This document shows, piece after piece, positions 6,051 to 62,158 of a stretch of DNA of 64,000 nt. Location: the UHGV virus genome UHGV-1375844; one strand, written 5' to 3'. How positions within the stretch are numbered: the stretch's first letter is position 1; each line of letters opens with the position of its first letter. A program made the position numbers and the translations under genes. Source of the stretch: a virus. The notes beneath the pieces were generated by a model that did no database searches, had not been told where the DNA came from, and was given only the letters and a program-made list of their open reading frames with translations.

Positions 6051-6066
6051 AAACAAATTGTTTTCT
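6051..6066. promoter_or_regulatory. motif B core copy
   Basis: AAACAAATTGTTTTCT about 20 nt upstream of helicase ATG. Confidence 0.45.
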
Positions 6067-6091
6067 AATGCTAAAAAAGCCAGATAGGGGA

Positions 6092-6817
6092 TCAACAGAA
6101 ACGCCGCGCTTCTTCCAGCTCTTCCGGAAAGTGGGCGTAGATAACTCGCTCAGGCACAACTTCCATGAGCCAGATGGCAGAAAAAATTATGCGTATGCGC
6201 TTATCCCGGGTGATGCCACGTAAACGCTCCAGAACCCACTCAAAATAGCTTTCCTGAATCGGGTCGTGCTGCATGTCTCCCATATGCTTAAAACTCACCA
6301 GAGAGTCATCCAGACGGGTTACAGCGCGTTTAGCTAACTTCTCTTCGAATATCTCGATTAGCTCTGGCTGCCAGAGATGTTGTGGGCGAGGTAATTTGTC
6401 CCACAACCGGCGTGCAGCTGCGGAGAGAACGGTGGAGATGAAGTAGTCATAAGAGCAGCAATAACGATCTGCGAACTGCCTGGCTTTCCAGAGAGAAGTC
6501 TTATTGGCTGTGGATAGCTCCTGATATGGCAAACGCTTCAGGCCAGTTGTAAACGGTGCTGTCTCGAAGTGTTCACGTCCATGCGACAGCATGATGTAGG
6601 AGTACTGCCGCTTGTATGCTTCGGTGAACAGACATGTCGCCATTAGCGGGTGCATATCGCGGTAGTCGAACCACTTGGAGTCATACAACTCGGCCTCATC
6701 CTTACAGCGCGAAAGACCGATGTTTTCGGCCACCCACTTGTCCATGACAGCGGTGTCCCACTCCTTCATGAAGGCGTACTGGTCGTTGTCGATAGTGTTG
6801 AAGAAAATCTGGCTCAT
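6092..6817 (-). CDS. hypothetical protein (241 aa)
   Basis: ORF adjacent to helicase; no recognisable motif. Confidence 0.55.
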   Translation of the reverse strand: MSQIFFNTIDNDQYAFMKEWDTAVMDKWVAENIGLSRCKDEAELYDSKWFDYRDMHPLMATCLFTEAYKRQYSYIMLSHGREHFETAPFTTGLKRLPYQELSTANKTSLWKARQFADRYCCSYDYFISTVLSAAARRLWDKLPRPQHLWQPELIEIFEEKLAKRAVTRLDDSLVSFKHMGDMQHDPIQESYFEWVLERLRGITRDKRIRIIFSAIWLMEVVPERVIYAHFPEELEEARRFC

Positions 6818-6831
6818 GTGATCCGCTATGG

Positions 6832-6850
6832 TAGGTAGTTACTTACTTAT
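6832..6850. promoter_or_regulatory. motif A palindrome copy
   Basis: TAGGTAGTTACTTACTTAT immediately upstream of ATG at 6817. Confidence 0.45.
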
Positions 6851-6936
6851 CAAAGTGAGCGAATCATAACGACTGGAGACAGCTTTTGGAAGTGGCAACT
6901 GAAGGGAATGTGTCTGGGAAGCTCGTTGTGAAAAGA

Positions 6937-6990
6937 CCTGCTTCCGTATAAATAATAATAAGTAACTTAGTATTTATATACAGAAGCAGG
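6937..6990. repeat. long inverted repeat H1 (18-20 bp arms)
   Basis: CCTGCTTCCGTATAAATA ... TATTTATATACAGAAGCAGG; loop carries a motif-A-like palindrome; near-identical copy at 40995..41049. Confidence 0.7.
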
Positions 6991-7006
6991 TTATAAAATC
7001 CTTTAT

Positions 7007-7417
7007 CTATTTTTCGATAACTCTTTGTTCAACTTCTTGCATCTGCTTTTCAGTGAGACTAGAAATGTGTTGATTCAGCAACAGATTGCGGTAGAAACTT
7101 TTTTGAGCCTCCGATAAATCCTGTCGCTTATCAATGTTTCTCAAAGCATTGCCGTAACTCTCGCTGATCGCATCACCATTGAATGCCTCAATAATGGTTT
7201 TCACATTCATAGCCAAGACGCCAAAGATAAAACAACCAGTGTTGTATACCCAGTCTACAACAAACCCTTTGGCGTACAAGAAAGGGGTTAAAATGTGAAG
7301 AATAACCCAAAGCAAAGCGCCAATTATTATTCCAAAAGCAGTTCTAAGCGGATAGCCCAAAAACAGAATATCTATTGCCCGATTTAAATTCCGACTAAAG
7401 AAATCATGATCTGGCAT
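7007..7417 (-). CDS. membrane protein (136 aa), AT-rich gene
   Basis: Hydrophobic helices (ILFLGYPLRTAFGIIIGALLWVILHILTPFLY); visibly AT-rich coding sequence. Confidence 0.5.
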   Translation of the reverse strand: MPDHDFFSRNLNRAIDILFLGYPLRTAFGIIIGALLWVILHILTPFLYAKGFVVDWVYNTGCFIFGVLAMNVKTIIEAFNGDAISESYGNALRNIDKRQDLSEAQKSFYRNLLLNQHISSLTEKQMQEVEQRVIEK

Positions 7418-8048
7418 CTAAAACCCCCTTTCCCAATTCTTCCCCTGGAATTTCTTCCGAGGCAGGGGTATTAAATATTTTACGCCTTCTGCCGCTTCCA
7501 CCATCATCGATCTTGTCGATATTATTTTCGATGAACTTTAAAAGCTGTATAGCCTCTGTACTATTGTTGCCGTAAAACCCTTTGGAAATACGATATGTCA
7601 GAACGCGCTCTTTCAGCTCAAGTAAAACAAAGACAACAATCCCGATAATAGTTACAATGGGGCTAAAGCCCCAAAAGTAACCCATTGAAGCACCAAGAAA
7701 AATCATCAGCACCGATAAAAACTTAACCTTAAGGAAGGTTTTTTTCTCATATAAAAGATAAAGCTCGGAAATAGTTTTCCTTTTCAAAAACTCTTGCTCT
7801 TTCTTTAAATTGTCCTCATGTTTTGCTTTTATCTCTTGTAATTTTATTCTGTACTCTTCTGATTTTATATAACTCAATGTATTACGATACAAGAAACTAC
7901 ATACCATACCTATCATTGAGCCAATAACAGAAATGACACCTTGGTTTGAAATTCCCAACAACCCCATAACCTTTCCAAAGATCACGGCGGCTATAATGGC
8001 TAACATTAGACCTACGAACCATCCGAAATGTCTATTCAGGAATTTCAT
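7404..8048 (-). CDS. membrane protein (214 aa), AT-rich gene
   Basis: N-terminal TM helices, lysine-rich coiled middle, second TM block; AT-rich; overlaps next gene by 14 nt. Confidence 0.5.
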   Translation of the reverse strand: MKFLNRHFGWFVGLMLAIIAAVIFGKVMGLLGISNQGVISVIGSMIGMVCSFLYRNTLSYIKSEEYRIKLQEIKAKHEDNLKKEQEFLKRKTISELYLLYEKKTFLKVKFLSVLMIFLGASMGYFWGFSPIVTIIGIVVFVLLELKERVLTYRISKGFYGNNSTEAIQLLKFIENNIDKIDDGGSGRRRKIFNTPASEEIPGEELGKGVLDARS

Positions 8049-8052
8049 TATA

Positions 8053-8412
8053 TTAGCCTTTCTTCATCAGCTCGCGCTTGATCTCGTCTGTGCGCATCGT
8101 GACGTCAGCAGCGGTGATCGCCTCGTTCAGTTTCACAATGTCCTCGATTTCCTGCGGCGACTTCTCTGCCAGATGGTAAATGGCTGCACGAATCACGTCA
8201 GAACGGGTGAACTTCTCAAAGCGAGGGATGAATTTCATCATCTCCAGCAGATCGAAGTATTCGTCCTCCAGCGACATGGTACGGCTCTTTATTTTCTCTT
8301 TCCCACGAGTCGGGCGGCCCTGTGGTCTGACTGGCTGGCGCAACGGCGTGCTGTTTTTGGCCGGAGCATCCGGTTCTTTGCGCTTGGCAAGGTCTCCCAT
8401 CTTCATGGACAT
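8053..8412 (-). CDS. ParG-like ribbon-helix-helix partition protein (putative centromere-binding)
   Basis: Basic disordered N-terminus then RHH-like segment (KSRTMSL / EDEYFDLLEMM / RSDVIRAAIYHLAE); immediately downstream of ParA-like gene. Confidence 0.5.
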   Translation of the reverse strand: MSMKMGDLAKRKEPDAPAKNSTPLRQPVRPQGRPTRGKEKIKSRTMSLEDEYFDLLEMMKFIPRFEKFTRSDVIRAAIYHLAEKSPQEIEDIVKLNEAITAADVTMRTDEIKRELMKKG

Positions 8413-9077
8413 TACTCTTCCTCCAGACTCAAGATATAATCAACAAACTGTTCAAACTCGGCTTCTGCCTTCTTGTCGCGTTCGGCGCCAGTCATTTCAA
8501 AGATAGAGCGACCAGCCTCTTCTGCATCATCGTAAACGTTACGGTTGTACAAATTGACCGGTGCAGCTTCGATACCAAACGTCTCAACGATTTCTTTGGC
8601 GGCCAGAATACGCGACACCTGGGAAGGTAGTGACGGGCACTGGTTGATAACGGCACGTATTTTCACCTTCTCGTTCACATTGCGTACATTGTCGATAATC
8701 GGGTCGATGTCGCGCAGCGATTTCAGGTCACGACGTTTAGGGCGCAGCGGTATGACGATAACATCAGCCATCAGCATAGCTTGTCGCTGGATTTCGGAGT
8801 CGAAGCCCCCTGCGTCTACAACCACGTAATCGAAGCGCCCCTGAAGCGATTTGAGATGCTTAACGACGTCTTCCTGAACGTAAGCGAAAGGAATGAGATC
8901 GAGATCTTCATTCTGTCGACGGTCTTCGCACCAGCTGGTAGTGGTGCGCTGGATGTCGATGTCGGTAACTTGGATTTTCTTTTTCTTTTTGACTTTCAGG
9001 CAAACCGCTATTTGCTGGGCAACGGTCGATTTACCCGGGCCACCCTTCGTGCCGCCAACCACAATGATCCTAGTCAT
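8412..9077 (-). CDS. ParA/ParF-family partition ATPase
   Basis: Deviant Walker A GGTKGGPGKST, 221 aa. Confidence 0.8.
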   Translation of the reverse strand: MTRIIVVGGTKGGPGKSTVAQQIAVCLKVKKKKKIQVTDIDIQRTTTSWCEDRRQNEDLDLIPFAYVQEDVVKHLKSLQGRFDYVVVDAGGFDSEIQRQAMLMADVIVIPLRPKRRDLKSLRDIDPIIDNVRNVNEKVKIRAVINQCPSLPSQVSRILAAKEIVETFGIEAAPVNLYNRNVYDDAEEAGRSIFEMTGAERDKKAEAEFEQFVDYILSLEEE

Positions 9078-9111: not shown

Positions 9112-9130
9112 GAAACAACTTGTTTTCTTA
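9112..9130. promoter_or_regulatory. motif B copy upstream of ParA-like gene
   Basis: GAAACAACTTGTTTTCTTA followed by TATGCGATAT. Confidence 0.45.
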
Positions 9131-40242: not shown

Positions 40243-40880
40243 ACACTCCCATCACTTTCATCGTCCGACGCGTCAGAATCGATTTCAGCTTCGCTCAGCG
40301 CTTCCTCTTCCAGCGACTCAAGCAGTTCATCATCGATCAACTCAGGCTCATCGTCTTCCTTACGCAGCTGCGCAACCTGTGAAGGTGTAAGTTCGCCAAA
40401 CACCAGGTTCGGAATTTCATCTTCCTCATTTTCGGCGCGATCCATGCCGAGCGCTTTCGAAGAGATTTCGAAGCACTTGGCCAGTGTGCCGCTGGCTCGC
40501 TGGAGACTTTTAAGGTCATCTTCTATAGCTGCGAGAGGTCTGCCATCCTTTTTGGCAGTGGCAACTTCGTGCATGACCATGCGCCCGAGTGCAAACGCCC
40601 AATCGTCGTAGCGAGTACGCCGCTCTTCAATTTTGTCTGCTCTCGCTTTGGCACGAAGCTCCGCATCGGATTTGAGCGATTCGCGAACCATCTTTCCAAC
40701 AGAGTCAGCGCCCTTCTCTAATCCACGCTTTTTGAAATGTCTGGAGAGCGTTTCACGACGAATGCCGTACTCTTCCTCCAGTTTTGAGAGCGTATACTCG
40801 CCTGAAGTCCACTTCGCTTCGGCTTCTGCCCACTCAGCTGGCGTCAGGCGAGTTTTGGTCTCGTCTTTTTCTACCGTCAT
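40239..40880 (-). CDS. terminase small subunit
   Basis: 213 aa with N-terminal HTH-like segment and acidic C-terminus; overlaps large-subunit start by 4 nt. Confidence 0.6.
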   Translation of the reverse strand: MTVEKDETKTRLTPAEWAEAEAKWTSGEYTLSKLEEEYGIRRETLSRHFKKRGLEKGADSVGKMVRESLKSDAELRAKARADKIEERRTRYDDWAFALGRMVMHEVATAKKDGRPLAAIEDDLKSLQRASGTLAKCFEISSKALGMDRAENEEDEIPNLVFGELTPSQVAQLRKEDDEPELIDDELLESLEEEALSEAEIDSDASDDESDGSV

Positions 40881-40920
40881 AGATCCCTCTAAAACACGCA
40901 GAGCGCATCCTTGCGCCCTC

Positions 40921-40965
40921 TAAACAATTTGTTTAAATCTCTGTCTAACCAATTTGTTTTCTGGG
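40921..40965. promoter_or_regulatory. motif B copies (two half-elements) upstream of terminase small subunit
   Basis: TAAACAATTTGTTTAAA and AACCAATTTGTTTTCTGG. Confidence 0.45.
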
Positions 40966-46121: not shown

Positions 46122-46400
46122 ATGAGCGATAAACGCGCTATACATTGCCAGGTGCAACTGACCGAGAAGGCCAACGACAAGCTGGAAAACTTTCAAAATC
46201 GTCTTCGTGAACGCAACATTAAGTTGTCAAAGGCAGACATCATCAATCTGGTGCTGGCCAACATGACAGTTGCCGATTTTGATAAGGCAGCGACATCTCT
46301 GGAGGCGTCAGCGAAAGCTCGTGAAAAAGTCATGAAAATTTACGAGAACTCGGGGATGACCAAAGAAGATTTGGCCGATATTCTAAAACGTCTCGACTGA
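46122..46400 (+). CDS. hypothetical protein (92 aa)
   Basis: ORF coupled to helicase stop. Confidence 0.5.
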   Translation: MSDKRAIHCQVQLTEKANDKLENFQNRLRERNIKLSKADIINLVLANMTVADFDKAATSLEASAKAREKVMKIYENSGMTKEDLADILKRLD

Positions 46401-46889: not shown

Positions 46890-47417
46890 ATGACGAACAT
46901 AACTGACATCACCTACGGTATACCTGCAGAAGTCTGGCCGCGGGATTATTCTAACGTCGAGAAGGCACTCATGTTCTGGCGTAAATCCCTCATTCCTGTA
47001 AGGGTCACGATGGAGGATGGTCAGGTGTTCTGCATGTATGTGCAGGGTCTCATGTCATCCCGCAATAAGGTTGATCTTTGCTCTGCCCCGTTCGACAAAG
47101 AAAATCGTATAAGGCTCCCACTTGAGCGGATCAGCACGATTGAGTCGGGTGTGACAGAAAGTATTGGACACGACTTCAAGGGGCGAATCACGATTAACCC
47201 CGAATATGTTGATAATCGGCCATCTCGCCGGGACTTCTTCAAAATCTGTCGGCAGGCTCATGCGTCTCAGAAGTCTATAAGGGTGTACATGGCGGATGGC
47301 CGTGAAATTGAAGGTGTGTCATTAGGCGTTGACGCTTGCCAGGTCACGATCGGCATTGGTGAAGGTCGCAAGATGGTGGTCTTGTTCGATTGGGTCGAAA
47401 GGATTATACCGTTTTAA
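46890..47417 (+). CDS. hypothetical protein (175 aa)
   Basis: ORF directly after lipoprotein gene. Confidence 0.5.
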   Translation: MTNITDITYGIPAEVWPRDYSNVEKALMFWRKSLIPVRVTMEDGQVFCMYVQGLMSSRNKVDLCSAPFDKENRIRLPLERISTIESGVTESIGHDFKGRITINPEYVDNRPSRRDFFKICRQAHASQKSIRVYMADGREIEGVSLGVDACQVTIGIGEGRKMVVLFDWVERIIPF

Positions 47418-47632: not shown

Positions 47633-47660
47633 TTGCTTTTAAAATTCATATAGCGATAAT
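47633..47660 (+). promoter_or_regulatory. sigma70-like promoter
   Basis: TTGCTT, 16-nt spacer, GATAAT; in AT-rich UP-like region about 80 nt upstream of ATG 47739. Confidence 0.5.
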
Positions 47661-47738
47661 TACACACATCGAAAGCGAACACGCTAACGATAAATAAAAA
47701 ACAAATTAATTTTCAATATTACATAAGGATTAAATATT

Positions 47739-48386
47739 ATGTCTAACGTTATCTCTAAAAAAGCTATCATCGACGCTGCTGTAGTTATCACTGAAGAGCT
47801 TCAGATCAAAGCAAATGAAGCAAGCCAGACACGCGAACAACGCGCTAAAAATGGAACTGCTACCAAAGCAGATAAAGCTAACGAGCTTGCAGCCACTACT
47901 AAACTTGCATACTTCACTAACAACGTATTAAACGCGCTTAAAGATGAAAAATTAGCTGGTGTCTTTTACTACGCGATTAAAGCCAGCAAGCAAGATCCAG
48001 AAGTATTTTTCCGTGAAGCGATGACTAATAGCTACTCTCTCGAAAAGCTGGTTTATCTGGTGAAGTCTATTAAGTCTGGCAAATGTGTTTATTCAGTCGC
48101 TGATATGTCAGGATCTCGCGTATTCGCATTAATCGAAATGATTAATGATGAAATGGAAACTTTTACTAATGGCGCTGTATTCGATTTAATGAATGAAGCT
48201 AAAAAAGCATGTGAGATTAAATTAGACGCTGGCTACACTCAAGCCAATCAGCTTATCAATTTGTGTGAACGTCTGGGACTGGTCGAGAAGATCAAAGGAA
48301 TGGGCGCTGCTAAAAACGGATCTCAGCAATATCGCTTTATCAAGAATGATTTTTATAACTATCTGGCTGAAGCGTTCAAAGCGTAA
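47739..48386 (+). CDS. hypothetical protein (215 aa), AT-rich cassette gene
   Basis: Own promoter and terminator; AT-rich codon usage. Confidence 0.55.
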   Translation: MSNVISKKAIIDAAVVITEELQIKANEASQTREQRAKNGTATKADKANELAATTKLAYFTNNVLNALKDEKLAGVFYYAIKASKQDPEVFFREAMTNSYSLEKLVYLVKSIKSGKCVYSVADMSGSRVFALIEMINDEMETFTNGAVFDLMNEAKKACEIKLDAGYTQANQLINLCERLGLVEKIKGMGAAKNGSQQYRFIKNDFYNYLAEAFKA

Positions 48387-49284: not shown

Positions 49285-49767
49285 TCACACGCCAGGCAGG
49301 ATATGAATGCGGTTGCTGACATACATCTCTTTCACGAAGTCCCCGCATGTGACTTTCCATTCACTGACACCGGCTTCATAAACCACGTTTTTGCATTTAA
49401 GTGCATTGTCAGCGATACGCACACCCTGCGCTGTTGCTTCCTGGTCGGTGAAGTCGAACCCGGATTCAGTTTTGACCCACACGGCAATTTGTGTTGCCAG
49501 CTCGATGAGTTTTGACTGGCAGAAGCGACCGCGTCGTACCGGGAAGATAAATACCCCGAACCCCGCGGTGGTAACGTAGGCTTTTTCGAATACGCGTTTA
49601 TGTCGACGGTTACAGATAATGTTGCTGGCGATCTGCTGCTTCTCTTTCCCTGACAACTCAATGGTCTCATTGCCACGCCAGGCGCCCAGCACGCTTTTTT
49701 CAATGTCAGAGTAAGTCACGGAGATCGTGCCATGCTCGGGAGTGTTCACAGTAGCGATATAGTTCAT
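49285..49767 (-). CDS. hypothetical protein (160 aa)
   Basis: ORF with motif B immediately upstream. Confidence 0.5.
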   Translation of the reverse strand: MNYIATVNTPEHGTISVTYSDIEKSVLGAWRGNETIELSGKEKQQIASNIICNRRHKRVFEKAYVTTAGFGVFIFPVRRGRFCQSKLIELATQIAVWVKTESGFDFTDQEATAQGVRIADNALKCKNVVYEAGVSEWKVTCGDFVKEMYVSNRIHILPGV

Positions 49768-49780: not shown

Positions 49781-49816
49781 TAAACAATTTGTTTTCTTGA
49801 TGGTTTAATTATCGCT
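49781..49816 (-). promoter_or_regulatory. motif B promoter/operator copy
   Basis: Minus strand reads GCGATAATTAAACCATCAAGAAAACAAATTGTTTAAAGGA then ATG. Confidence 0.5.
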
Positions 49817-49990
49817 ACGCGTATCAGGCGTCCAAGCGCTCTATTCCGGCATCTGTTTGCCTGAAGGGAGTCAGAGGGTCGTTCGGTAGCCTGGCGGTAA
49901 GAGGTGGGTGTTTTGCCTGATGTGATGAGGTTGGTATATCTGGCGGGCAAGCGGTGCTATCTTGGCCGCAGGTAACTCAGGAGACTCAAG

Positions 49991-50206: not shown

Positions 50207-50488
50207 TTAGTGGAGCAGACCGACGTCGATGGTGTCGCCGGAGTCTGTGATGCGGATCATCAGCATGGCGAAGGCATTTAACGGATAGCCTGCGTGCCAC
50301 TCCGGGAAACGATCGTCTCGCATGAAATCGGCAATGTCATACACGCTGTCCTGAAAACGGAAGAAGCGGGTGGCGCTCTGCTCGTCGTATTCAACATGAT
50401 CCATCTCCTGCTGTTCTGCCGGCGACAGGTCCAGCCAGGACTCCAGGTAAACATTTTCAGCTTTAGGGGTAATTGTAAAATCGGTCAT
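50207..50488 (-). CDS. hypothetical acidic protein (93 aa)
   Basis: ORF with motif B upstream and GAGGA RBS. Confidence 0.5.
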   Translation of the reverse strand: MTDFTITPKAENVYLESWLDLSPAEQQEMDHVEYDEQSATRFFRFQDSVYDIADFMRDDRFPEWHAGYPLNAFAMLMIRITDSGDTIDVGLLH

Positions 50489-50506: not shown

Positions 50507-50542
50507 GTAAACAATTTGTTTTCTTGTTGGTGTAATTATCGC
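50507..50542 (-). promoter_or_regulatory. motif B promoter/operator copy
   Basis: Minus strand TGCGATAATTACACCAACAAGAAAACAAATTGTTTAC. Confidence 0.5.
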
Positions 50543-50615
50543 AGTGTGAATAAGGCAGAAAACATTTTGTTATCGGGGGCAAGTAAGTGGCGCGGGATTC
50601 GCGCCACTGGCGGGA

Positions 50616-51460: not shown

Positions 51461-51497
51461 GTAAACAATTTGTTTTCTTGATGGCGTAAATAATACC
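51461..51497 (-). promoter_or_regulatory. motif B promoter/operator copy
   Basis: GTAAACAATTTGTTTTCTTGATGGCGTAAATAATACC on plus strand. Confidence 0.5.
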
Positions 51498-51819: not shown

Positions 51820-52038
51820 TCACTTCGTTTCTGACGTTGTGCAGTTCCACGCGACGGACATTGGGCTGTCCTCGATATGGAAATCAAACGTCCCTTCTCT
51901 GTACCCTTCAGAGATAAGCGTCGCTACGCGAGTAGTGACATCCTGGGAACGGATAACGTCATCGAGGGAGATCTGGAGTTCGTCAGTGCATGTCTCTTCT
52001 CCGCAAAGGGTGATGCTGATATTAAGATGCTTGTACAT
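51820..52038 (-). CDS. hypothetical protein (72 aa)
   Basis: ORF with motif B upstream. Confidence 0.45.
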   Translation of the reverse strand: MYKHLNISITLCGEETCTDELQISLDDVIRSQDVTTRVATLISEGYREGTFDFHIEDSPMSVAWNCTTSETK

Positions 52039-52053: not shown

Positions 52054-52089
52054 CTAAACACGTTGTTTTCTTATTGGTGTTATTATCGC
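52054..52089 (-). promoter_or_regulatory. motif B copy in divergent region
   Basis: CTAAACACGTTGTTTTCTTATTGGTGTTATTATCGC between minus gene start 52038 and plus gene start 52181. Confidence 0.5.
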
Positions 52090-52180
52090 AATAAGAAAAC
52101 GGGGAAAAAGCATTCATTAAAGGCTGATGTGTTTGTGTCGATTTATTGCTATGTATGTATCTGGCTAACTCAGAGGGAAT

Positions 52181-52979: not shown

Positions 52980-53470
52980 CTTTTTGCGCTTCTTGAGGCT
53001 GTTCTTCTATGCGTTTTCTTCTGGGTTGTTTTCGTCTCTTTGGGTGTTCTTCTTCTCTGGGTATTGAGTAATGGCAGGTGTGCTTTCCTCTTCGTTTACT
53101 TGCTGAGAAGGAAGTGTGGGGAATGGCAGTAGGGCGCTTTAGTTGTTCTCTGCATATCAAGTAATAGCGTTCCCTGCTTTTCAGGACTTTGCGCTCTCTT
53201 CAGGGGTAATGGTGGGTAAGTAAGATTGCAACGGCTCCTGTTCTGGTCTGGGTTTGCCCGGGGTTGCATTCTGAGCGCTGTTCTCTGTGTTTTGGGTAAT
53301 GGCATGTAGAGGATTGCGTGCGCGAGCTGCGTCTCGGTTGCCTGGTGGCATTAGGTGGGTGGTCGGTAGCCTGGGGTCAAGAGGTGGGTCTATTCCATAG
53401 CCTGGTGGTAAGAGGTGGGTAGTTTCCGGGGGTTGTGGGCAATGGCGCCTCTGGGTTTCCCGCGGGTGGG
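52980..53470. repeat. degenerate tandem direct repeats in ORF-free region
   Basis: Recurring TTCTCTGGGT...GGTAATGGC units (period roughly 75-80 bp) and 3 copies of TAGCCTGG.GGT.AAGAGGTGGGT; a fourth copy of the latter lies at about 49871. Confidence 0.55.
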
Positions 53471-53510
53471 ATTAATTTGTTTTCTTGCTGTAGAAAACAA
53501 CTTGTTTAAA
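53471..53510. promoter_or_regulatory. motif B copies in both orientations
   Basis: ATTAATTTGTTTTCTTGC and GAAAACAACTTGTTTAAA. Confidence 0.4.
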
Positions 53511-53706
53511 TGGGCAATTTAACGCAATCAGAGCGCTTTTGAGCGTGTCTGTTTTTGGGTGGTGTGTTGAGTCGTTAGAGATGCTTTCGTCGCGAGGTGA
53601 TTGATTCTGGTGGGCAGGATAGCGGGTATAAGAGATGGCATGTGAAAACGTCAACTTTTTAGACTAAATCGGGAGAATGCATTGACATTTCTTTGATGTG
53701 TTATTT

Positions 53707-53731
53707 ATTTGTTTTCTCATATGCGTAATTA
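53707..53731. promoter_or_regulatory. motif B-like copy
   Basis: ATTTGTTTTCTCATATGCGTAATTA (compare 9112..9130). Confidence 0.35.
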
Positions 53732-54075: not shown

Positions 54076-54393
54076 TCACCAGTCCCATGAGGTAAGTCCG
54101 TCCACCAGCTCGGCATCACGGTCGAAATGTACCGAATCGAAGCCAGCATCGAGTACTGCCTGAATATTCGTTATCGTCTCTTCGGAGATATTGTAGGCAC
54201 GCAGTTCTTCCTTCCAGTCATTCCCCCGTAATCCGGCCCGGACAATCCATCCGTACTTGCTACCGTGTACCCAATTCAGCCCGCGGTCTGTGATTGGGTC
54301 GAAACTTACGACAGGCAGACGTTCAGAGTCTTCGCCCGTTACGTGAGCGGTGCTGATCACCGCCGTCTTATAGGACTCGGTGATTTTCAGCAT
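54076..54393 (-). CDS. hypothetical protein (105 aa)
   Basis: ORF coupled to the upstream gene. Confidence 0.5.
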   Translation of the reverse strand: MLKITESYKTAVISTAHVTGEDSERLPVVSFDPITDRGLNWVHGSKYGWIVRAGLRGNDWKEELRAYNISEETITNIQAVLDAGFDSVHFDRDAELVDGLTSWDW

Positions 54394-54629
54394 GATGACT
54401 TCTCCTTCGGAAAGAGGGTTTCAGCCGTGTCAGAGATAACATCCCAATTCACGCCCACATTAGCATCATGGCAATCCTTGATTTTACGCATCACCTGTAC
54501 GCACTGCTCGTCTGTCAGATCCGGTCGAACCTGGCTTACGTCTTCCTTGTGCCACATGACCATCAGCAGCGGCTCATCTTCCGGGTAGTTCTCCAGTTTT
54601 TCGGTTATCTCTTTAGCGGTTCCGAACAT
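54387..54629 (-). CDS. hypothetical protein (80 aa)
   Basis: ORF trimmed to second ATG, which has AAGGAG RBS lying within motif B. Confidence 0.45.
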   Translation of the reverse strand: MFGTAKEITEKLENYPEDEPLLMVMWHKEDVSQVRPDLTDEQCVQVMRKIKDCHDANVGVNWDVISDTAETLFPKEKSSC

Positions 54630-54639
54630 TATTAACTCC

Positions 54640-54675
54640 TTAAACATCTTGTTTTCTTGTTGGTGTTATTATCTC
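54640..54675 (-). promoter_or_regulatory. motif B promoter/operator copy
   Basis: TTAAACATCTTGTTTTCTTGTTGGTGTTATTATCTC. Confidence 0.5.
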
Positions 54676-54713
54676 AATTTACAAGAGGCAGAAAACAAAA
54701 TGTTTAAGGGGAG

Positions 54714-54980: not shown

Positions 54981-55050
54981 TTTTACCTCCCAAACAACTG
55001 TATATATTTACAGTAGTATTAAGGCAAAAATCAGTCAATTTAGAAGGGTG

Positions 55051-55087
55051 TGATAATAACTTATGTGTGAAAACAAATTGTTTAAGG
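55051..55087 (+). promoter_or_regulatory. motif B copy in plus orientation
   Basis: TGATAATAACTTATGTGTGAAAACAAATTGTTTAAGG, orientation opposite to flanking genes. Confidence 0.4.
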
Positions 55088-55103
55088 CCACAACAGTGGC
55101 CTT
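55068..55103 (-). terminator. intrinsic terminator
   Basis: AAGGCCAC-loop-GTGGCCTT; on minus strand followed by AAACAATTTGTTTTC, so the motif B core doubles as U-tract. Confidence 0.45.
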
Positions 55104-55110
55104 AATATGA

Positions 55111-55296
55111 TCATTCGCCGTGGTTGTTTTCGGTTTGTCTCAACTCTTCGTTAATCATGCGCTTACTCTGCTGTCGCGCTCGATGCTTACAGGCCCGAAG
55201 TTCCGAGTCGTAACCGTTCCCCTTTCTGTAACCACGAGAACGACATAACGAGCAGGTACACCCATCGGCTGAATAGAATTTACCAAAGGGCTGCAT
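55111..55296 (-). CDS. small Cys-rich basic protein (61 aa)
   Basis: C.C..C...C..H pattern suggests zinc binding. Confidence 0.4.
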   Translation of the reverse strand: MQPFGKFYSADGCTCSLCRSRGYRKGNGYDSELRACKHRARQQSKRMINEELRQTENNHGE

Positions 55297-55514: not shown

Positions 55515-56068
55515 GCAGCTCGCTCCATCTCAACCAGCCCGGTGCGGACAACGTTTAAGATCCGCTCCAGGTATTCGTATTCGGGGTTTGGTACAGAAGG
55601 CCAGTTTGCATACCACGGCTCATCTCCGAACAGATCCATCAGCTCATTTCCAATACCGAAACCGCAACAGTTTTCTTTCACATCATCGGCGTTTTCAGGC
55701 TCGTCCCACATGTCCCGAGCCTTTGATGAGTCAATCTCACGTTCTCTGCGGAGCTTCAAAATCTCCGATTTAACAAAGCGAAGGTTGGCCTCATTGTCGT
55801 CGTCGACCGTTTTACGAAGATGTGCGTCCAGACAACCGATAAGATAGTCATTACTTACCCGCTTAATGAACTCCTGCACCGTATCGCCTCCCATTGCAGA
55901 CCACGCGCCAGTCCATACTTTCCCGAAACAAGTAATAGTGATGCGACCTTTGCCCGGCTCGTAGTTTTCAATCATGACGCGTACCGGGTCGAGACGTTCC
56001 AGGTCTGTCAGAACGAATGACAGAACATCTATCTTTTCGACTTTCACATGGCCTCCCATGCATTCCAT
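55511..56068 (-). CDS. hypothetical protein (185 aa)
   Basis: ORF overlapping the upstream gene by 25 nt. Confidence 0.5.
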   Translation of the reverse strand: MECMGGHVKVEKIDVLSFVLTDLERLDPVRVMIENYEPGKGRITITCFGKVWTGAWSAMGGDTVQEFIKRVSNDYLIGCLDAHLRKTVDDDNEANLRFVKSEILKLRREREIDSSKARDMWDEPENADDVKENCCGFGIGNELMDLFGDEPWYANWPSVPNPEYEYLERILNVVRTGLVEMERAA

Positions 56069-56697
56069 ATCAGCGCTTTATGCTTCTCGTAACGTTTAGC
56101 GTGTACCGGTTGCAGACTGGCAATGCCGGCCGTCACCATCGTCCGCGCATTTGTCAGCAGAGTGTGTTCCATGCCTTTCTTCTCCAGGTACTCGACAACA
56201 CCTGCATCTGCGCCGATCTCTTTACCCATAAAGAGTACGGCCAGCATTAATTCTTTCTCAGCGAGGTAGATAGCGGAAAACTCAGGATCGCGGCTAACAA
56301 TGGATGAGGTATTGTCCAGCAAATCCGCGAGCTTAATCACACGCGTCTGCATATCGAGGCTTTGCTCCAGCTCCCGAACGTTGATAATGAATCGCTGGAT
56401 GCGATTACCGTCTTCTGGCCTGGCGACGTTGGTCAGTGCCAGCACCATTTCAGCGACACGCTCACCGAAGTGTTCCCGTACCATTTCGATAGTGACTTTG
56501 GTGTCTTCAACTACGTCATGCAGTAACGCGGCGATCTGCATATCAATACTTCCACCATGCCACGCAACAATTTCGCGAACCGCGACTGGATGATTAATGT
56601 AATCCTCGCCGGTGTATTTGCGCTTCTGGCCTATACCTCCATGAGCACCAGCGGCAAACATATGAGCTTTGGTAATACTGGACATACTTAACTCCAT
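56044..56697 (-). CDS. HD-domain (p)ppGpp-hydrolase-like protein (small alarmone hydrolase candidate)
   Basis: SpoT/RelA-type HD signature: YINHPVAV, AALLHDVVEDT, KLADLLDN; true start may be ATG at 56685 which has a GGAG RBS. Confidence 0.65.
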   Translation of the reverse strand: MELSMSSITKAHMFAAGAHGGIGQKRKYTGEDYINHPVAVREIVAWHGGSIDMQIAALLHDVVEDTKVTIEMVREHFGERVAEMVLALTNVARPEDGNRIQRFIINVRELEQSLDMQTRVIKLADLLDNTSSIVSRDPEFSAIYLAEKELMLAVLFMGKEIGADAGVVEYLEKKGMEHTLLTNARTMVTAGIASLQPVHAKRYEKHKALIWNAWEAM

Positions 56698-56714
56698 TGT
56701 TTTCTCGATGTGGT

Positions 56715-56758
56715 TATTTTCACATACAAGAAAATGCAGAAAACAAATTGTTAAAGGC
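56715..56758. promoter_or_regulatory. motif B copy
   Basis: TTATTTTCACATACAAGAAAATGCAGAAAACAAATTGTTAAAGG; element readable in both orientations. Confidence 0.45.
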
Positions 56759-56772
56759 CACTACTGTGGCCC
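56738..56772 (-). terminator. intrinsic terminator
   Basis: GGCCAC-loop-GTGGCC hairpin then AACAATTTGTTTTCT on the minus strand. Confidence 0.4.
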
Positions 56773-56777
56773 TAAAT

Positions 56778-58177: not shown

Positions 58178-59880
58178 CATTTAATGCGTTTGAAAACGTA
58201 CACGCTTACAGTGATCCCCGTGTCCTCAAACTCATCAGTGAATGACTTGCCTTTGGCGTAGACGTAATTGTCCAGCGTCATCCAGTTTAGAATTGATGAG
58301 TCTCCCGGTAATACTGCTACCAGGCGCCCACCGACTTTCAGATGCCCCAGCCCGGCCAGCGTGTGCTCTTTGTGGCGGCCGAGAGAGTAGGGTGGGTTCA
58401 TGACAATCTTGTCGAATTGATAACCTGCATTATCGGCAGACCATTTCATGAAGTCACAGCAGACCGTGTTTACGTAGCCTTTGCCAACAAGGATGTCAGC
58501 GAAGAGCGGGGCAATCTCAATACAGGTGACGTCTTCAGGATTGGTCTCGATATAAGCAAGCAGATCTCCGCGACCAGCTTCCGGCTCCAGCAATGTTTCA
58601 CCGGATTTCAAATCAACGGCTTTGGCTACGTACTCAGCGATTACGCGTGGGGTAGGGTAAAATTGATGTGATTTTGCATCTGGGATCAGACCCGTGGCCA
58701 CAATCGTATTGAGCGTATGACCGATCTCATACGGGAACTGCCAGTGCCCCTTCTCCTGCACGCCGCCAATGAAGCTCAGTGTGCGCACCAGCTCTTCCAC
58801 CTGCGACTTCTGAAGGCTCGAATCTGAGAAGTACCAGACACCTTTGTCTTTGCTGAATCGCCCGTCACGCAACGTGGTGCGAACAGGTTCAGAGATGGTC
58901 TTTTGGATGAGGCCAAACTCTTTAGGCGCTCGGGCTTTTGGCGCTGTTCTGCAAGGGGCAGGGATAGCAGCAGGCATACTGTACGCCAGCACTTCATTTA
59001 GTTTCCAGGCCACATCCGGATGGATCTCAAAATGTACGTTGCCGTTCTTGAACATCTTCACACGCATCAGGTTTCCGTCGACATTCATCCAGTCACCGGT
59101 CTGGCAGTCGTTCGCCCGGTACGCAGCTGATAGCATCTCCGTTGTGCGGTTGATGGTGATGAACTCTTTGTGCGCAAAAAAATGAAGCATAACGCGCAGG
59201 TCGTCGATGTAGTCTTCCTTCCGATAGTTCACGCTGACGCTGTCCCTCCAGAACTCGGAAATGCAGCTGGCGATGATCAGACGCTCGCTGAAGCCGTTCG
59301 TCTTATTGGTCTTGTGCGCAGGACTCAGCGCCTTAAACAAGCCATACACGCGCTCGGAAAGATATTTATGCCTGTCATTCAGCAAATTAAGCATCGTTGG
59401 GATGACCGTCTCTGCCTTGAACTCCGGCACACCAACGAACTCCTTAACCTTCATCTGGTAACCGGTTCTGTCTGTCTTGATAGTTTCCTGTTTGCCTTCT
59501 ATGAACTGTTCGCGCCACTCGTCACGGCGTGAAGCTGGCATGATCAGCAGAACGTTGGTCATATCCGTAACCTTCTTCCAGTACTCGGCCCAGATATTCT
59601 GTTTCACCCATTCCAGGTCGACTTTATCCAGCCAGGCTCTGTTAAAACGCGTGCGCTCATCATCCGGCCGGTGGTTGAGTCGCAGCAGACGGTTGATCAT
59701 GTTGTGGCGTTCGTCGCCATAAACGAAGTCGTGAACCTGATACATGAAGGCGATCTCTTTCTCGCACTCGGCCACAATTTCGTGGATGACGTTCATTTCC
59801 TGGCGATAGTCGATTTCAGTATTGGGCGTTACGGAGTCAATGATAGAAAGGGCTGTACTCATAATTGCACCATTAAACAA
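58177..59880 (-). CDS. N6-adenine DNA methyltransferase with ~390-aa N-terminal domain of unknown function
   Basis: C-terminal FYPTP, motif I-like EPEAGRGDL, catalytic NPPY (IVMNPPYS). Confidence 0.75.
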   Translation of the reverse strand: MFNGAIMSTALSIIDSVTPNTEIDYRQEMNVIHEIVAECEKEIAFMYQVHDFVYGDERHNMINRLLRLNHRPDDERTRFNRAWLDKVDLEWVKQNIWAEYWKKVTDMTNVLLIMPASRRDEWREQFIEGKQETIKTDRTGYQMKVKEFVGVPEFKAETVIPTMLNLLNDRHKYLSERVYGLFKALSPAHKTNKTNGFSERLIIASCISEFWRDSVSVNYRKEDYIDDLRVMLHFFAHKEFITINRTTEMLSAAYRANDCQTGDWMNVDGNLMRVKMFKNGNVHFEIHPDVAWKLNEVLAYSMPAAIPAPCRTAPKARAPKEFGLIQKTISEPVRTTLRDGRFSKDKGVWYFSDSSLQKSQVEELVRTLSFIGGVQEKGHWQFPYEIGHTLNTIVATGLIPDAKSHQFYPTPRVIAEYVAKAVDLKSGETLLEPEAGRGDLLAYIETNPEDVTCIEIAPLFADILVGKGYVNTVCCDFMKWSADNAGYQFDKIVMNPPYSLGRHKEHTLAGLGHLKVGGRLVAVLPGDSSILNWMTLDNYVYAKGKSFTDEFEDTGITVSVYVFKRIK

Positions 59881-59908
59881 ATTGTTTTCTTATTGGTGTT
59901 ATTTTCGC
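59873..59908 (-). promoter_or_regulatory. motif B promoter/operator copy
   Basis: TTAAACAAATTGTTTTCTTATTGGTGTTATTTTCGC immediately upstream of methyltransferase ATG. Confidence 0.5.
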
Positions 59909-59961
59909 AAAGCTGAAAAGGCGTAAAAGCTGTATTTGCAGGCGTTGCAGCATAGTGAGGG

Positions 59962-59985
59962 CAAAAAAGGGGGCTTTCGCCCCCT
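59962..59985 (-). terminator. intrinsic terminator
   Basis: GGGGGC-loop-GCCCCC followed on the minus strand by TTTTTTG. Confidence 0.6.
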
Positions 59986-60001
59986 GAATGTTGATACTGA
60001 G

Positions 60002-60571
60002 TTAGTGGCTTGCACTTAAATCTTTCTGAGGCTGCTTATTCAGGTCATGGCGGTGGGTAAGCTCGCGCATCATGTCCTCAAGGCGACTTTTGGTGGAGTC
60101 TAACTGGTCGGCCATAGAGCCGAGCATTTGACGAACGGCCATTGGATCATCGCTCTGCAGATCAGGCATCTTGAAACCTGTCTGGGTGGTCATCAACTTA
60201 AAGGCAGAAATAAGTATGGCCATCGAGGATTTCAGGCCGGCAATTTCGCGGTCTTTACTGGCGACAGTTTCGTCAGCTTTGATGGCGCTCGGTGCGCATT
60301 TCTGCTCGCTGACCATATTCAGTGTGGATTGCATTTTATCAGCGCGATCTTTCTCTGCGAGATAGTGAACACCCAGGTGGTGCGCCAGGCCGATAATTTC
60401 CATTGGGTCATCAAAAATTGAAGCGAATTTAACGACAGTAATCAGTCTTTCAGGCGCTGAAGACTGTTCTGTGCCGCGCACTATACCAAGCATTTTTACC
60501 AGATCCGCGACTTCCATCTCTTCAAATTTTGCATTCATCTCTGCGGCTTTAGCTTTGCAATTCTGACACAT
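60002..60571 (-). CDS. hypothetical protein (189 aa)
   Basis: ORF with motif B upstream. Confidence 0.5.
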   Translation of the reverse strand: MCQNCKAKAAEMNAKFEEMEVADLVKMLGIVRGTEQSSAPERLITVVKFASIFDDPMEIIGLAHHLGVHYLAEKDRADKMQSTLNMVSEQKCAPSAIKADETVASKDREIAGLKSSMAILISAFKLMTTQTGFKMPDLQSDDPMAVRQMLGSMADQLDSTKSRLEDMMRELTHRHDLNKQPQKDLSASH

Positions 60572-60589
60572 GTGTTTTTCCTTATTGGT

Positions 60590-60626
60590 TTAAACAAATT
60601 GTTTTGTGGATGGCTGTATTGTTACG
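60590..60626 (-). promoter_or_regulatory. motif B promoter/operator copy
   Basis: TTAAACAAATTGTTTTGTGGATGGCTGTATTGTTACG; leader AATAAGGAAAAACAC-ATG shared with copy at 62141. Confidence 0.5.
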
Positions 60627-60678
60627 TGACAGAGAAGGTGAGCAAGCGCCATGACAAGGGAAATGTCTGCGCTCACGG

Positions 60679-61491
60679 TTAATGAAGACGTGTGGTCTCC
60701 TCCATCTCGCGCTCAACATGCACACGACACGGTTCGTATTCGATACCGCTTACGCTAATTTTCCCGGCAGCGATCAGCTTCACAGCAGCGAAGCAGAGTC
60801 CTTTGAAGGTGTACTTGGCCTGATTGTGGCCATTGCCGGATACAACGTTTTTGCCATATCCGCGGTCGATAAAGATCTTCAGAAATTGACGGTTAGTTGT
60901 TGTGTACTTACGTTTAACGTACACATCGCCCAACGAATCCATTAAAGCCCCCAGAACTGCACCCGAGGTTCCGAGTATGCGTCCGGCTTCATTTAGCCCG
61001 TAAAGCTCATCAGCAGCCCCGCAGATTGTGTCCATGAGAATGGCTTTTGGTTTAGCGTGAGAGAGCGCAACGCCCAGAGCTTCGTTCTCTTTTTCAAGTC
61101 GTTCATTTTCTTCGACCTGGCGGAGCAAGTGGACGAGCGCTTCTTTATAGGTATGCGGGATAGCGGGAGTTACCCGATCGGCATACAGGGTCTCCAGTTC
61201 CTTCCATCGATCGACAAGTCGTGCGGTAAACTCAGGGGATAGCTGCGCCACAACAATGATACTGTCACGTTTGCCCTGTTCGTTTTCAAACAGGTAGATC
61301 GTCACGGGGCGCCCGGCCGTGGGCTTTTCCACCGTTGGTGGAGAAGCTATAACGCCCGATTTCGCCAGTCTTTCAATGGTGCGCTTTACACTGTCGTGCC
61401 GACTACCAACCAACTCGGCGATCTCCAGGCTGGTCATGGATGGTTTCGCGTGTATGCCGGTGGTGGGGGTGAGGGAAGCTATTTCAAACAT
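60679..61491 (-). CDS. Rha-family regulatory protein / antirepressor
   Basis: Trimmed to MFEIASLTP start; N-terminal Rha-like HTH (MTSLEIAELVGSRHDSVKRTIERL). Confidence 0.6.
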   Translation of the reverse strand: MFEIASLTPTTGIHAKPSMTSLEIAELVGSRHDSVKRTIERLAKSGVIASPPTVEKPTAGRPVTIYLFENEQGKRDSIIVVAQLSPEFTARLVDRWKELETLYADRVTPAIPHTYKEALVHLLRQVEENERLEKENEALGVALSHAKPKAILMDTICGAADELYGLNEAGRILGTSGAVLGALMDSLGDVYVKRKYTTTNRQFLKIFIDRGYGKNVVSGNGHNQAKYTFKGLCFAAVKLIAAGKISVSGIEYEPCRVHVEREMEETTRLH

Positions 61492-61502
61492 ATTCGCTCC
61501 GT

Positions 61503-61529
61503 GAAAGAAAAGGGCCATCACTGGCCCTT
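61503..61529 (-). terminator. intrinsic terminator
   Basis: AAGGGCCA-loop-TGGCCCTT followed on minus strand by TTCTTTC. Confidence 0.45.
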
Positions 61530-61691
61530 GTTGTTGACTGATTTCTTCTTTAGCAATGGACTGGCGAAATAGAACGCCAGCCCAACCAACACGCCATCAG
61601 CCGCAACTGACATCAACTTGCCGGTGAAATCCACCAGAACGGTCAATACCAGCAGCGCGATAACTGCCGCAAATCTGAAGTTCTCTAACAT
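61518..61691 (-). CDS. small membrane protein (57 aa)
   Basis: Hand-translated MLENFRFAAVIALLVLTVLVDFTGKLMSVAADGVLVGLAFYFASPLLKKK...; ATG overlaps upstream stop (TAATG). Confidence 0.35.
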   Translation of the reverse strand: MLENFRFAAVIALLVLTVLVDFTGKLMSVAADGVLVGLAFYFASPLLKKKSVNNKGQ

Positions 61692-62116
61692 TACAGATAA
61701 GGGTCCAAAGACAGCTGAAGCGCCTGGGCAATTTTGCGAAGGGCTTTCTCTTCCTGCTCCCCGATGCCGTCCTGATCAGCAATATCGATGCAGAGGCACA
61801 GCACATCCACGGCATCACTGGTACCGGCAATGTCTTCCAGTTCACGAAGAGCCTGGGCAGCTGCTCGGCGTGCGCTGGCTTCAAACTGCTGGCGAACGTT
61901 GGTGCTCAGTTGAGCGATTTCGCTGGCGAAAGGTGTAAATGCAGGCGTGGCCTGAATAGCTTTTTCAAGAATGGAAACTTCTTCTGCGGTGCATTCACCA
62001 TCAAAGTAGGAAATGTAGTACCCGCCCCACACTGTTGCTTCAACGGCGTCACGGTTTTCCATTTTTTTCACTTCAACAACCGCTTTACGGGTCTTCTTTC
62101 TTAAAAAACCTAACAT
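61691..62116 (-). CDS. hypothetical protein (141 aa)
   Basis: ORF with motif B and AATAAGGAAAACAC leader upstream. Confidence 0.45.
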   Translation of the reverse strand: MLGFLRKKTRKAVVEVKKMENRDAVEATVWGGYYISYFDGECTAEEVSILEKAIQATPAFTPFASEIAQLSTNVRQQFEASARRAAAQALRELEDIAGTSDAVDVLCLCIDIADQDGIGEQEEKALRKIAQALQLSLDPYL

Positions 62117-62140
62117 GTGTTTTCCTTATTAGTTATTTGG

Positions 62141-62158
62141 CTTAACAAATTGTTTAAG
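62141..62158 (-). promoter_or_regulatory. motif B core copy
   Basis: CTTAACAAATTGTTTAAG. Confidence 0.45.

Follow-up and report, generated by a model that had tools for sequence, protein, structure and literature searches.

Motif B, a conserved dyad in paralogous promoters of SSU5-type phage-plasmids, is a candidate operator for a shared repressor

The C1 repressor of bacteriophage P1 acts on many operators, each an asymmetric 17-mer, that are dispersed across the prophage, and the KorB/KorA regulon of the IncP plasmids uses 13-bp palindromic OB sites, some of which are centered near -39. Ribbon-helix-helix (RHH) repressors of the CopG/Arc/Mnt type read, as a small dimer, a short symmetric element (~13 bp) that overlaps the promoter. 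At the RNA level, FljA acts on fliC mRNA and RegA of phage T4 on early mRNAs; RegA is unrelated to the FljA-like protein discussed below. Warman et al. reportedly described, in 2021, symmetric bidirectional promoters with overlapping -10 elements. Here we compare with these systems a repeated palindromic element, motif B, found in a 64,000-nucleotide stretch of the viral genome UHGV-1375844 (the window). Motif B belongs to a conserved promoter cassette, and we judge, with slightly better than even confidence, that a dimeric repressor uses it as its DNA operator.

The window is 98.8% identical to the Salmonella enterica plasmid pSA20094620.2 (106,569 bp, IncFIB) and matches Salmonella phage SSU5 at ~83% identity over 57% of a test region at 49-57 kb; it is therefore an SSU5/pHCM2-type phage-plasmid. 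It carries replication and early genes, a tail and head module, a ParB-like/ABC operon and a helicase operon, and 49-63 kb is a block of small minus-strand genes. More than 800 sequenced plasmids contain homologues of SSU5/pHCM2-type genes; they come from Klebsiella, E. coli, Salmonella, Enterobacter and Yersinia, all listed Yersinia matches being Y. pestis. The whole matching plasmid was reassembled from four pieces to view the motif beyond the window, and 80 related loci were collected by anchoring on the conserved helicase. These loci replaced an exact-pattern scan of viral contigs for the 17-mer described below, which gave mostly single, probably chance matches.

Allowing one mismatch at most, we counted 14 occurrences of the 13-mer AAACAAWTTGTTT in the window versus 0.14 expected from dinucleotide shuffles (6051, 9113, 40922, 40947, 49782, 50509, 51463, 53495, 54693, 55071, 56741, 59875, 60592 and 62143), and weaker copies, with one or two mismatches or with the left half only, lie at 50560, 52056, 54642, 53706 and 56692. 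Across the whole plasmid, 26 palindromes with at most two mismatches were found versus 4.0 in shuffles; copies outside the window lie upstream of a cobT-like gene, of nrdB and of an open reading frame (ORF) in the SPFH region. Nineteen of the 20 distinct sites in the whole plasmid (at most three mismatches to the 17-mer) are intergenic, although non-coding DNA makes up only ~14%. For each coordinate listed in the original prediction there is a real copy or the -10 box of one, and the long form quoted there, GCGATAATAACACCAACAAGAAAACAAATTGTTTAAGGA-ATG, is correct on the minus strand. Oriented alignments also confirmed its three parts, namely the extended -10, the palindrome and the ribosome-binding site, and the element does lie, as had been claimed, upstream of the DnaB-like helicase, ParA-like ATPase and small-terminase-like genes and of most small genes at 49-62 kb.

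When the copies are oriented by their flanks, the core is a 13-bp dyad, AAACAAnTTGTTT, inside an asymmetric 17-mer, AGAAAACAAnTTGTTTA. The dyad has a 6-1-6 layout, with ~1.4-1.8 bits at most half-site positions, 1.0 beside the center and 0.0 at the center itself. The palindrome and its fixed spacing had been singled out before, and both are kept, but the conserved core is an asymmetric 17-20-mer and not just the 13-bp palindrome. Seven paralogous promoters aligned across four genomes yielded a cassette of ~75 bp, consisting of a weak -35, an extended -10 (TGcGATAAT), a 10-nt spacer, the 17-mer, a Shine-Dalgarno (SD) sequence and ATG, with the consensus gCTTTTnnGCCTTTTC - N4 - TTGCGATAAT - AACACCAACA - AGAAAACAAnTTGTTTA - SD - ATG. 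The -10 hexamers of the window copies are GATAAT, TATTAT or GAAAAT, preceded by TGC, TGA, TGG or TGT as forms of TGn. The box TGCGATAAT is not enriched as a stand-alone repeat (14 found versus 15.7 expected) and is significant solely via its fixed spacing, 10 nt to the 17-mer and 13 nt to the 13-mer. Three promoters of the window have, in addition, an inverted copy across the -35 (50557, 54690 and 56738), spaced 51 bp from the other one.

The 80 related loci supplied 384 unique palindrome contexts, which fell into three classes. In class A (166-167 of 384), the motif is in the sense orientation with a -10-like hexamer exactly 13-14 nt upstream; in a random control, any such hexamer occurred at 12.6% of positions with nine spacings pooled. 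TGn was present in 132 of the 173 contexts having a -10-like hexamer, and an SD sequence and a start codon followed the motif in 143 of the 167 class A contexts, mostly 9-22 nt downstream. In class B (68/384), the motif is inverted at a fixed 20 nt from an opposite-strand -10, that is, over the -35; the class B flanks, AAAGGCAGAAAACAAnTTGTTTAAGG, are strongly conserved, and a gene follows in only 25 of the 68. The position downstream of the -10 that was first proposed is thus that of the main class, but the second class is inverted over the -35 with its center near -38. Assuming a transcription start 7 nt past the -10, the dyad would lie at about +8 to +20 in class A and at -44 to -32 in class B. 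Canonical sigma70 -35/-10 promoters are depleted at 48.5-63 kb (2 versus 13.8 expected), and therefore motif-B cassettes are the main promoter candidates there. Since the cargo genes are highly variable between relatives, this region can be read as an array of promoter, small gene and terminator cassettes.

The 17-mer stands at orthologous promoters of SSU5, Klebsiella phage ST13-OXA48phi12.3 (13 copies versus 0.0 in shuffles) and the E. coli phage-plasmid Cyrano, and motif B is invariant in the Salmonella, E. coli, Klebsiella, Enterobacter, Citrobacter and Yersinia lineages. The palindrome is likewise unchanged in a diverged lineage, that of Klebsiella plasmid pfekpn2511-2, whose core proteins are 56-90% identical to those of the window; there the motif is mostly upstream and inverted, and past the -10 only the left half, AGAAAACAA, is found, fused to the SD sequence. 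The genes driven by the cassettes are present in 0 to 55 of 57 loci while the cassette persists, and it therefore behaves as a portable promoter. Acinetobacter plasmids of ~110 kb, which are syntenic and encode homologues of XRE (35-37%) and of the ParB-like protein (38%), lack motif B (5 matches versus 4.2 expected) and keep a second palindrome, motif A, as TTAGTAAGCRCTTACTAA. Judged from sequence comparison, the conservation of the motif under changing flanks strongly supports a functional element common to one promoter class, and its retention while flanks and cargo change points to purifying selection. The cassettes look like a vehicle that plugs variable cargo genes into a common control circuit.

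Expression readings were taken from the supplementary table of an RNA-seq study of E. coli LF82 carrying Cyrano, using the values for overnight LB culture (PMC9928086). The genes behind orthologous cassettes gave 25.5 (CYRAN_111), 6.7 (CYRAN_110), 12.2 (CYRAN_106), 12.8 (CYRAN_105) and 7.5 (CYRAN_101), versus a background median of 9.8 across the Cyrano element, while the putative repressor CYRAN_45 gave 95.8 and CYRAN_43 gave 7084 (PMC9928086). Promoters with a near-consensus extended -10 thus gave background readings and, in the plasmid state of this relative, appear to be silent at the RNA level; such silence of strong-looking promoters favors transcriptional repression. Ciprofloxacin induces Cyrano. 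As a separate observation, the annotated start of CYRAN_110 (locus L128 10127-10477) lies upstream of its own motif-B promoter; the SD sequence and ATG after the motif near 10405 are the likely true start, so the public record looks mis-annotated.

The exact dyad with a free center, its two positions on core promoter elements and the RNA-level silence tip the balance modestly toward a DNA operator. The cassette would be a promoter of the sigma70 type, its -35 weak and its -10 extended, that carries an operator dyad downstream of the -10 and/or over the -35. A dimeric DNA-binding repressor of the plasmid (lysogenic) state would bind these dyads and block RNA polymerase; paired copies are 51 bp apart, ~five helical turns, so cooperative binding may occur. 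Some 20 promoters, those of small accessory and early genes and of replication genes along with those at the antirepressor operon and the terminase leader, would be held off jointly and, upon induction, released jointly. We infer protein binding and repression from this pattern. The idea of an operator shared by promoters under one regulator, which was originally left open as to repressor or activator, agrees with the conservation and the lysogen silence if the regulator is a repressor; an activator is unlikely at about +14.

An activator could nevertheless be imagined at the other position, where a dyad over the -35 would recruit RNA polymerase via an element-encoded class II-type activator and the cassettes would be "middle" promoters used only after induction. 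The weak -35 hexamers, the class II position of the class B copies near -38 and the lysogen silence are consistent with this. However, most window copies occupy about +8 to +20, a position from which activators do not act, a TGn extended -10 should not need one, and no candidate activator was found. We consider an activator site very improbable.

Several observations weigh against a repressor acting on a DNA operator. Class C comprises 149 of the 384 contexts, in other arrangements without a -10 at the canonical distance, among which are the two copies in the terminase leader, the sites before the DnaB and ParA-like genes and the conserved half-motif hairpin at 53.5 kb. The flanks are asymmetric in both orientation classes, with AGA on one side and AAGG on the other, an asymmetry that a simple symmetric dimer does not explain. 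The transcription start positions rest on inference, and the expression readings come from the relative Cyrano, not from the window element. None of the regulators encoded in the window could be tied to motif B, and the element regulators examined diverge while the motif is invariant (XRE 42-67%, FljA-like 34%, and variable strand residues in the hypothetical protein hyp92). The XRE (CI-like) repressor was rejected as the reader of motif B, since the control/immunity region (XRE/cro-like) holds no copy of it. The DUF7706 "repressor-like" protein is present in only 4 of 57 loci. Rha/Ant is absent from the Klebsiella phage that has the motif, and its own gene lies downstream of a motif-B copy. 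The ParB-like proteins, considered by analogy with KorB, have motif A at their own promoter, and in the Cyrano lysogen their two genes gave no more than background readings (5.0 and 9.5 versus 9.8; PMC9928086); one of them aligns with Spo0J through the helix-turn-helix. Pfam, PHROG and NCBIfam screens of ~30 neighboring proteins revealed no further DNA-binding domain.

The XRE gene itself is directly preceded by a motif-A-like palindrome (locus L004 17063-17081). Across four lineages, this palindrome changes where XRE is 42% identical, and a motif-B copy 0.5 kb away is unchanged. The XRE-upstream palindrome varies with XRE and motif B does not; therefore, XRE appears to go with motif A.

For the putative repressor of motif B, hyp92 is the best element-encoded lead as a DNA reader, and it is proposed as a lead only. 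It is present in 57 of 57 loci, has an RHH-like sequence pattern, and in the Cyrano lysogen its orthologue, CYRAN_117, ranks with the most highly expressed genes of the element (114 versus the background of 9.8; PMC9928086). Alignment with RHH domains by hhalign was register-correct and weak (P = 0.006, probability 6%). HMMER searches of PDB and Pfam gave no matches, and the monomer model was of low confidence, with helices in the right places and too weak for a fold search. The residues predicted to face DNA differ from lineage to lineage, whereas both motifs, A and B, stay the same; neither motif varying, no co-variation of hyp92 strand residues with either was visible. The positional equivalent of hyp92 in Acinetobacter looks RHH-like too, with a different strand.

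The reader might instead be a host protein, a DNA- or RNA-binding factor of the Enterobacterales that ties early and accessory expression to host physiology. The motif is invariant across enterobacterial lineages while the examined element regulators diverge, and the relatives that lack it, those from Acinetobacter, live in a host of another order. Motif A is equally invariant, even in Acinetobacter; therefore, invariance alone is weak evidence. No enterobacterial regulator site is known to match AAACAAnTTGTTT, and the motif string was not found in a literature search. The sites of KdgR, CusR, NrdR, Lrp, IHF and PhoP and the 434-type sites are not known to share its half-site spacing or arrangement; those of KdgR, CusR and NrdR and the 434-type sites share half-site letters with motif B, at a different spacing. 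A host reader appears quite improbable to us.

The asymmetric flanks, including the conserved AAGG, could also be explained by control at the RNA level. In this account, the FljA-like protein would bind the sense 17-20-mer AGAAAACAAnUUGUUUAAGG in the leader RNA, at the 5' end of the leader and abutting or including the SD sequence, block the ribosome and destabilize the mRNA. The class A sites are in the leader, mostly close before SD and ATG. The protein is a full-length PF03614 member (E = 3e-89) encoded 2.4 kb away, and its gene is found in 12 of 12 SSU5-like phages, in 831 plasmids (341 Klebsiella, 62 Yersinia) and in 57 of 57 loci. Being core to the whole family, the gene is unlikely to have flagellin as its target. 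An AlphaFold model (predicted local distance difference test score, pLDDT, 84.5; predicted template modeling score, pTM, 0.82) showed two repeats, each of one helix and five strands. As modeled, this is a tandem Sm/Hfq-like fold, which would make the protein an RNA- or single-strand binder and not a duplex DNA binder and which, for the FljA family, would fit the reported action on mRNA. The Cyrano orthologue is expressed at log2 7-8 in four of five conditions versus ~3-4 for late genes (PMC9928086). Loci with a divergent FljA type, which form a single clade, have ~2 full leader copies versus ~4 elsewhere. The Acinetobacter relatives, which keep motif A, XRE and the ParB-like gene, lack motif B and, with no significant FljA-like match in the Acinetobacter locus, the FljA-like gene as well; this is a single evolutionary contrast.

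Nevertheless, the exact reverse-complement symmetry and the free center of the dyad are unexplained for a single-stranded site. The class B copies lie upstream of the -10 and so are not transcribed by that promoter, the distance to the SD sequence is variable, and the silence already shows in RNA levels. The FljA-like protein of the diverged lineage is an outlier at 34% identity that has lost the otherwise invariant AEVWPRDY block, yet the motif is the same. As a homologue of motif B, the fliC leader was rejected after comparison with 105 retrieved flagellin loci: its best matrix score was -10.0 versus 17-37 for true sites (p = 0.14-0.36), and the Salmonella fliC leader and motif B share only CAAGTTGT. 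We regard an RNA operator as unlikely.

A structured RNA element in the 5' leader had also been suggested. The motif alone folds as RNA to only -0.7 kcal/mol (z = 0.36); half-site variants in the plasmid copies and in the diverged lineage are uncompensated, with no compensatory substitution found between half-sites; and Rfam gave nothing at the gathering threshold. A weak Rfam match to mir-3914 (E = 0.36) was at chance level and merely reflected the fold-back of paired arms. These results led us to reject a structured RNA element, and the same small, uncompensated hairpin also tells against control by the FljA-like protein.

It was further proposed that the palindrome supplies the U-tract of terminators at 55.07 and 56.74 kb. 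The hairpins there are real, GC-rich, terminator-like and of ten pairs, and they show compensatory change in a Klebsiella relative (GGCCAC/GTGGCC to GGCTAT/ATAGCC). The tail ACAAUUUGUUUU passes a simple scan, yet starts ACAA, and its role as a U-tract is no more than plausible.

These two copies abutting real terminator hairpins, together with the modular cargo genes, bring up the question of whether the cassette needs a regulator at all. It could be a bidirectional promoter and insulator in which a symmetric -10 lies between the inverted half-motifs TTGTTTTCT and AGAAAACAA; the arms would pair in read-through RNA and hide the SD sequence or form a processing or termination site, and the A/U-rich leader would be a translation enhancer. 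At 54641/54690, the paired arms would fold back in read-through RNA at -25.4 kcal/mol (z = -6.3), burying AAGG and hiding the SD sequence; what both lineages retain is the inner halves, TTGTTTTCT and AGAAAACAA; and an opposite-strand TGn-TATTAT occurs in 64 of 167 class A promoters versus ~6% expected. However, most promoters have one full copy only, the centers of paired arms vary independently between genomes without compensation, and the outer half-sites, which are not needed for pairing, are kept as exact complements of the inner ones. Lysogen silence would also be left unexplained. A factor-free cassette seems distinctly improbable.

Two kinds of control might also be combined in the helicase-hyp92-FljA-like operon, whose orthologues are expressed in the Cyrano lysogen: a small RHH protein would act on the dyad, and the FljA-like protein, a flagellin-repressor homologue recruited by the phage-plasmid, would recognize the same sequence in the nascent leader RNA and obstruct the neighboring SD sequence. 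In this two-layer scheme, to which we give little credence, the gene-less plus-strand modules (55049-55103 and 53477-53560) would yield short motif RNAs that titrate the FljA-like protein. If true, it would represent a RegA-like translational regulon with decoy RNAs in a plasmid prophage, and the FljA family would gain a general function beyond flagellar phase variation. Considered by itself, the 55049-55103 module, a complete promoter cassette that leads directly into a conserved hairpin, could give rise to a short motif-bearing or antisense RNA.

The individual sites, together with the two candidate trans-acting factors and the motif A sites, are listed in Table 1. In the small-terminase leader (40880-40962), a hairpin with a T-run (GGGCGCAAGGATGCGCTC...GTGTTTT) follows both motif-B copies just before the ATG, and a motif-A-like site lies further upstream; the late packaging operon may be under attenuator-type control. 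Iteron-like repeats, TCGGTAGCCTGGnGGTAAGAGGTGGGT, occur as three tandem copies with 29-31 bp spacing (53333-53425) and as one distant copy at 49882-49914. The tandem copies share a gene-free stretch with two neighboring hairpins, the half-motif one (53477-53500) and one that resembles a terminator (53533-53546). This stretch could be a second origin or a small-RNA locus.

Table 1. Motif-B sites, related elements and candidate factors in the window (17-mer or feature coordinates)
Position	Strand	Type	Sequence and promoter features	Gene and context
6050..6066	-		Perfect 17-mer; no canonical -10	18 nt before ATG of DnaB-like helicase (4691-6031); 60-nt intercistronic gap
9112..9128	-		No canonical -10 spacing	34 nt before ATG of ParA-like ATPase (8412-9077)
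40921..40962	-	Two tandem copies (40921-40937, 40946-40962)	No -10 at canonical spacing	Leader of small-terminase-like gene (40239-40880); kept in Klebsiella and in diverged lineage
46122..46400	+	hyp92	Possible RHH protein	Candidate DNA-level reader, lead only
46890..47417	+	FljA-family protein (PF03614)	Predicted tandem Sm/Hfq-like fold	Candidate RNA-level trans factor
47652..47690	+	Degenerate cassette relative	AGCGATAATTACACACATCGAAAGCAAACACG; palindrome lost	Upstream of phrog_1513 gene (47739-48386)
49781..49797	-	Class A	17-mer AGAAAACAAATTGTTTA, 0 mismatches; GATAAT ends 10 nt upstream (box 49808-49816)	phrog_1641 gene (49285-49767), ATG 13 nt downstream; orthologous copies in SSU5, Klebsiella, Cyrano
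50508..50524	-	Class A	0 mismatches; TGCGATAAT (50535-50543) 10 nt upstream	phrog_1845 gene (50207-50488)
50557..50573	+	Class B, inverted	Degenerate	Over -35 region of 50508 promoter
51462..51478	-	Class A	0 mismatches; TGG-TATTAT 11 nt upstream	ATG 11 nt downstream
52055..52071	-	Class A	AGAAAACAACGTGTTTA with TGCGATAAT (52082-52090)	72-aa gene 51820-52038
53477..53508	+	Half-motif hairpin into full copy (53492-53508)	TTGTTTTCT-TGCTGT-AGAAAACAA	No gene after; kept in many lineages
53706..53718	-	Left half only	GAGAAAACAAATA
54641..54657	-	Class A	AGAAAACAAGATGTTTA with TGAGATAAT (54668-54676)	DUF1380 gene (54387-54647)
54690..54706	+	Class B, inverted	51 bp center to center	Over -35 of 54641 promoter
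55049..55084	+	Stand-alone module	TGTGATAAT, 10 nt, TGAAAACAAATTGTTTA	Opposes minus-strand genes; no ORF after
55084..55103	.	GC-rich hairpin, terminator-like	AAGGCCAC-AACA-GTGGCCTT; palindrome as putative T-rich tail	For minus-strand gene 55111-55296
56692..56707	-	Left half only	CGAGAAAACAATGGAG, fused to SD; -10 GAAAAT	Gene 56044-56697; likewise in SSU5
56738..56754	+	Class B, inverted	Then hairpin 56754-56773	Over -35 of HD-domain operon promoter
59874..59890	-	Class A	0 mismatches; with TGCGAAAAT (59901-59909)	DUF4942 methylase-like gene
60591..60607	-	Class A	ACAAAACAATTTGTTTA	189-aa gene 60002-60571
62143..62155	.	Palindrome; orientation ambiguous in window, sense in Klebsiella relative	TAACAAATTGTTT	27 nt before ATG of TerB-DUF3927-Rha/Ant operon
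3389, 6828, 12125, 13222, 19205, 25665, 32193, 37452, 38965, 44496, 58159, 63009		Motif A

Motif A, ATA(A/G)GTAAGTACTTAC(T/C)TAT, is the second repeated palindrome of these elements. Late structural operons have it upstream, and it also occurs at the divergent ParB-like/helicase promoter and directly ahead of the XRE gene; it is essentially invariant in all lineages, the Acinetobacter relatives included. Its core resembles the SlmA site, GTGAGTACTCAC. Further repeats were noted. A perfect 12-bp hairpin (CTGTACGAACAG-N9-CTGTTCGTACAG; locus L004 16571-16603) lies between the cro-like gene and the motif-B copy before the cobT-like gene, and AGAAACGTTTAGAAAC, ~17 nt before the cro-like ATG (locus L004 16870-16890), looks like motif B minus its central five bases. 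In an Acinetobacter relative (locus L315 6490-7020 and 12698-13329), the accessory region without motif B contains clusters of TTTCTATATAGAAA / TCTACAT repeats, which could be operators or iterons of its own.

The plasmid-versus-lytic choice of SSU5/pHCM2-type phage-plasmids is essentially unstudied, and motif B offers a handle on it. A literature search found no description of motif B or of any operator or promoter class for SSU5-type phage-plasmids. The invariant 17-mer marking ~20 early promoters can serve directly as bait for the regulator, can be turned into a set of reporters and can help to recognize early and accessory gene cassettes computationally in new genomes.

Among the known systems, bidirectional promoters resemble the cassette in that GATAATA reads TATTAT on the opposite strand, offset by one base, with an opposite TGn in ~40% of class A; in contrast, the opposite-strand hexamer follows automatically from GATAAT, and there is usually no gene in the opposite direction. 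Like FljA on fliC and T4 RegA, a small element-encoded protein could act at an SD-adjacent leader sequence of many early mRNAs, but the fliC leader is no significant match, many copies lie outside a leader, and a dyad is pointless for an RNA site. The likeness to the CopG/Arc/Mnt operators lies in a symmetric site of ~13 bp at the promoter and in a small, universal protein of RHH-like pattern encoded in the window, whose orthologue is expressed; the RHH assignment of hyp92 is, however, only suggestive (P = 0.006, 6%), and its DNA-facing residues vary whereas the motif does not.

A dispersed operator in paralogous promoters is of a kind well known from P1 and the IncP plasmids. With KorB, motif B shares a 13-bp palindrome at many plasmid promoters, one class of sites at or upstream of the -35, and ParB-family proteins encoded by the element. 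It differs in its unrelated sequence, in most sites being downstream of the -10, and in the ParB-like genes being silent in the Cyrano lysogen with motif A at their own promoter. Compared with P1, where the operator sequence is unrelated and read by C1, the site here has a 13-bp dyad core and XRE appears to be linked to motif A. Nevertheless, both are plasmid prophages, each with ~20 copies of one short site at scattered early promoters, overlapping core promoter elements, and in P1 as in the present element many operons are plausibly held off in the plasmid state.

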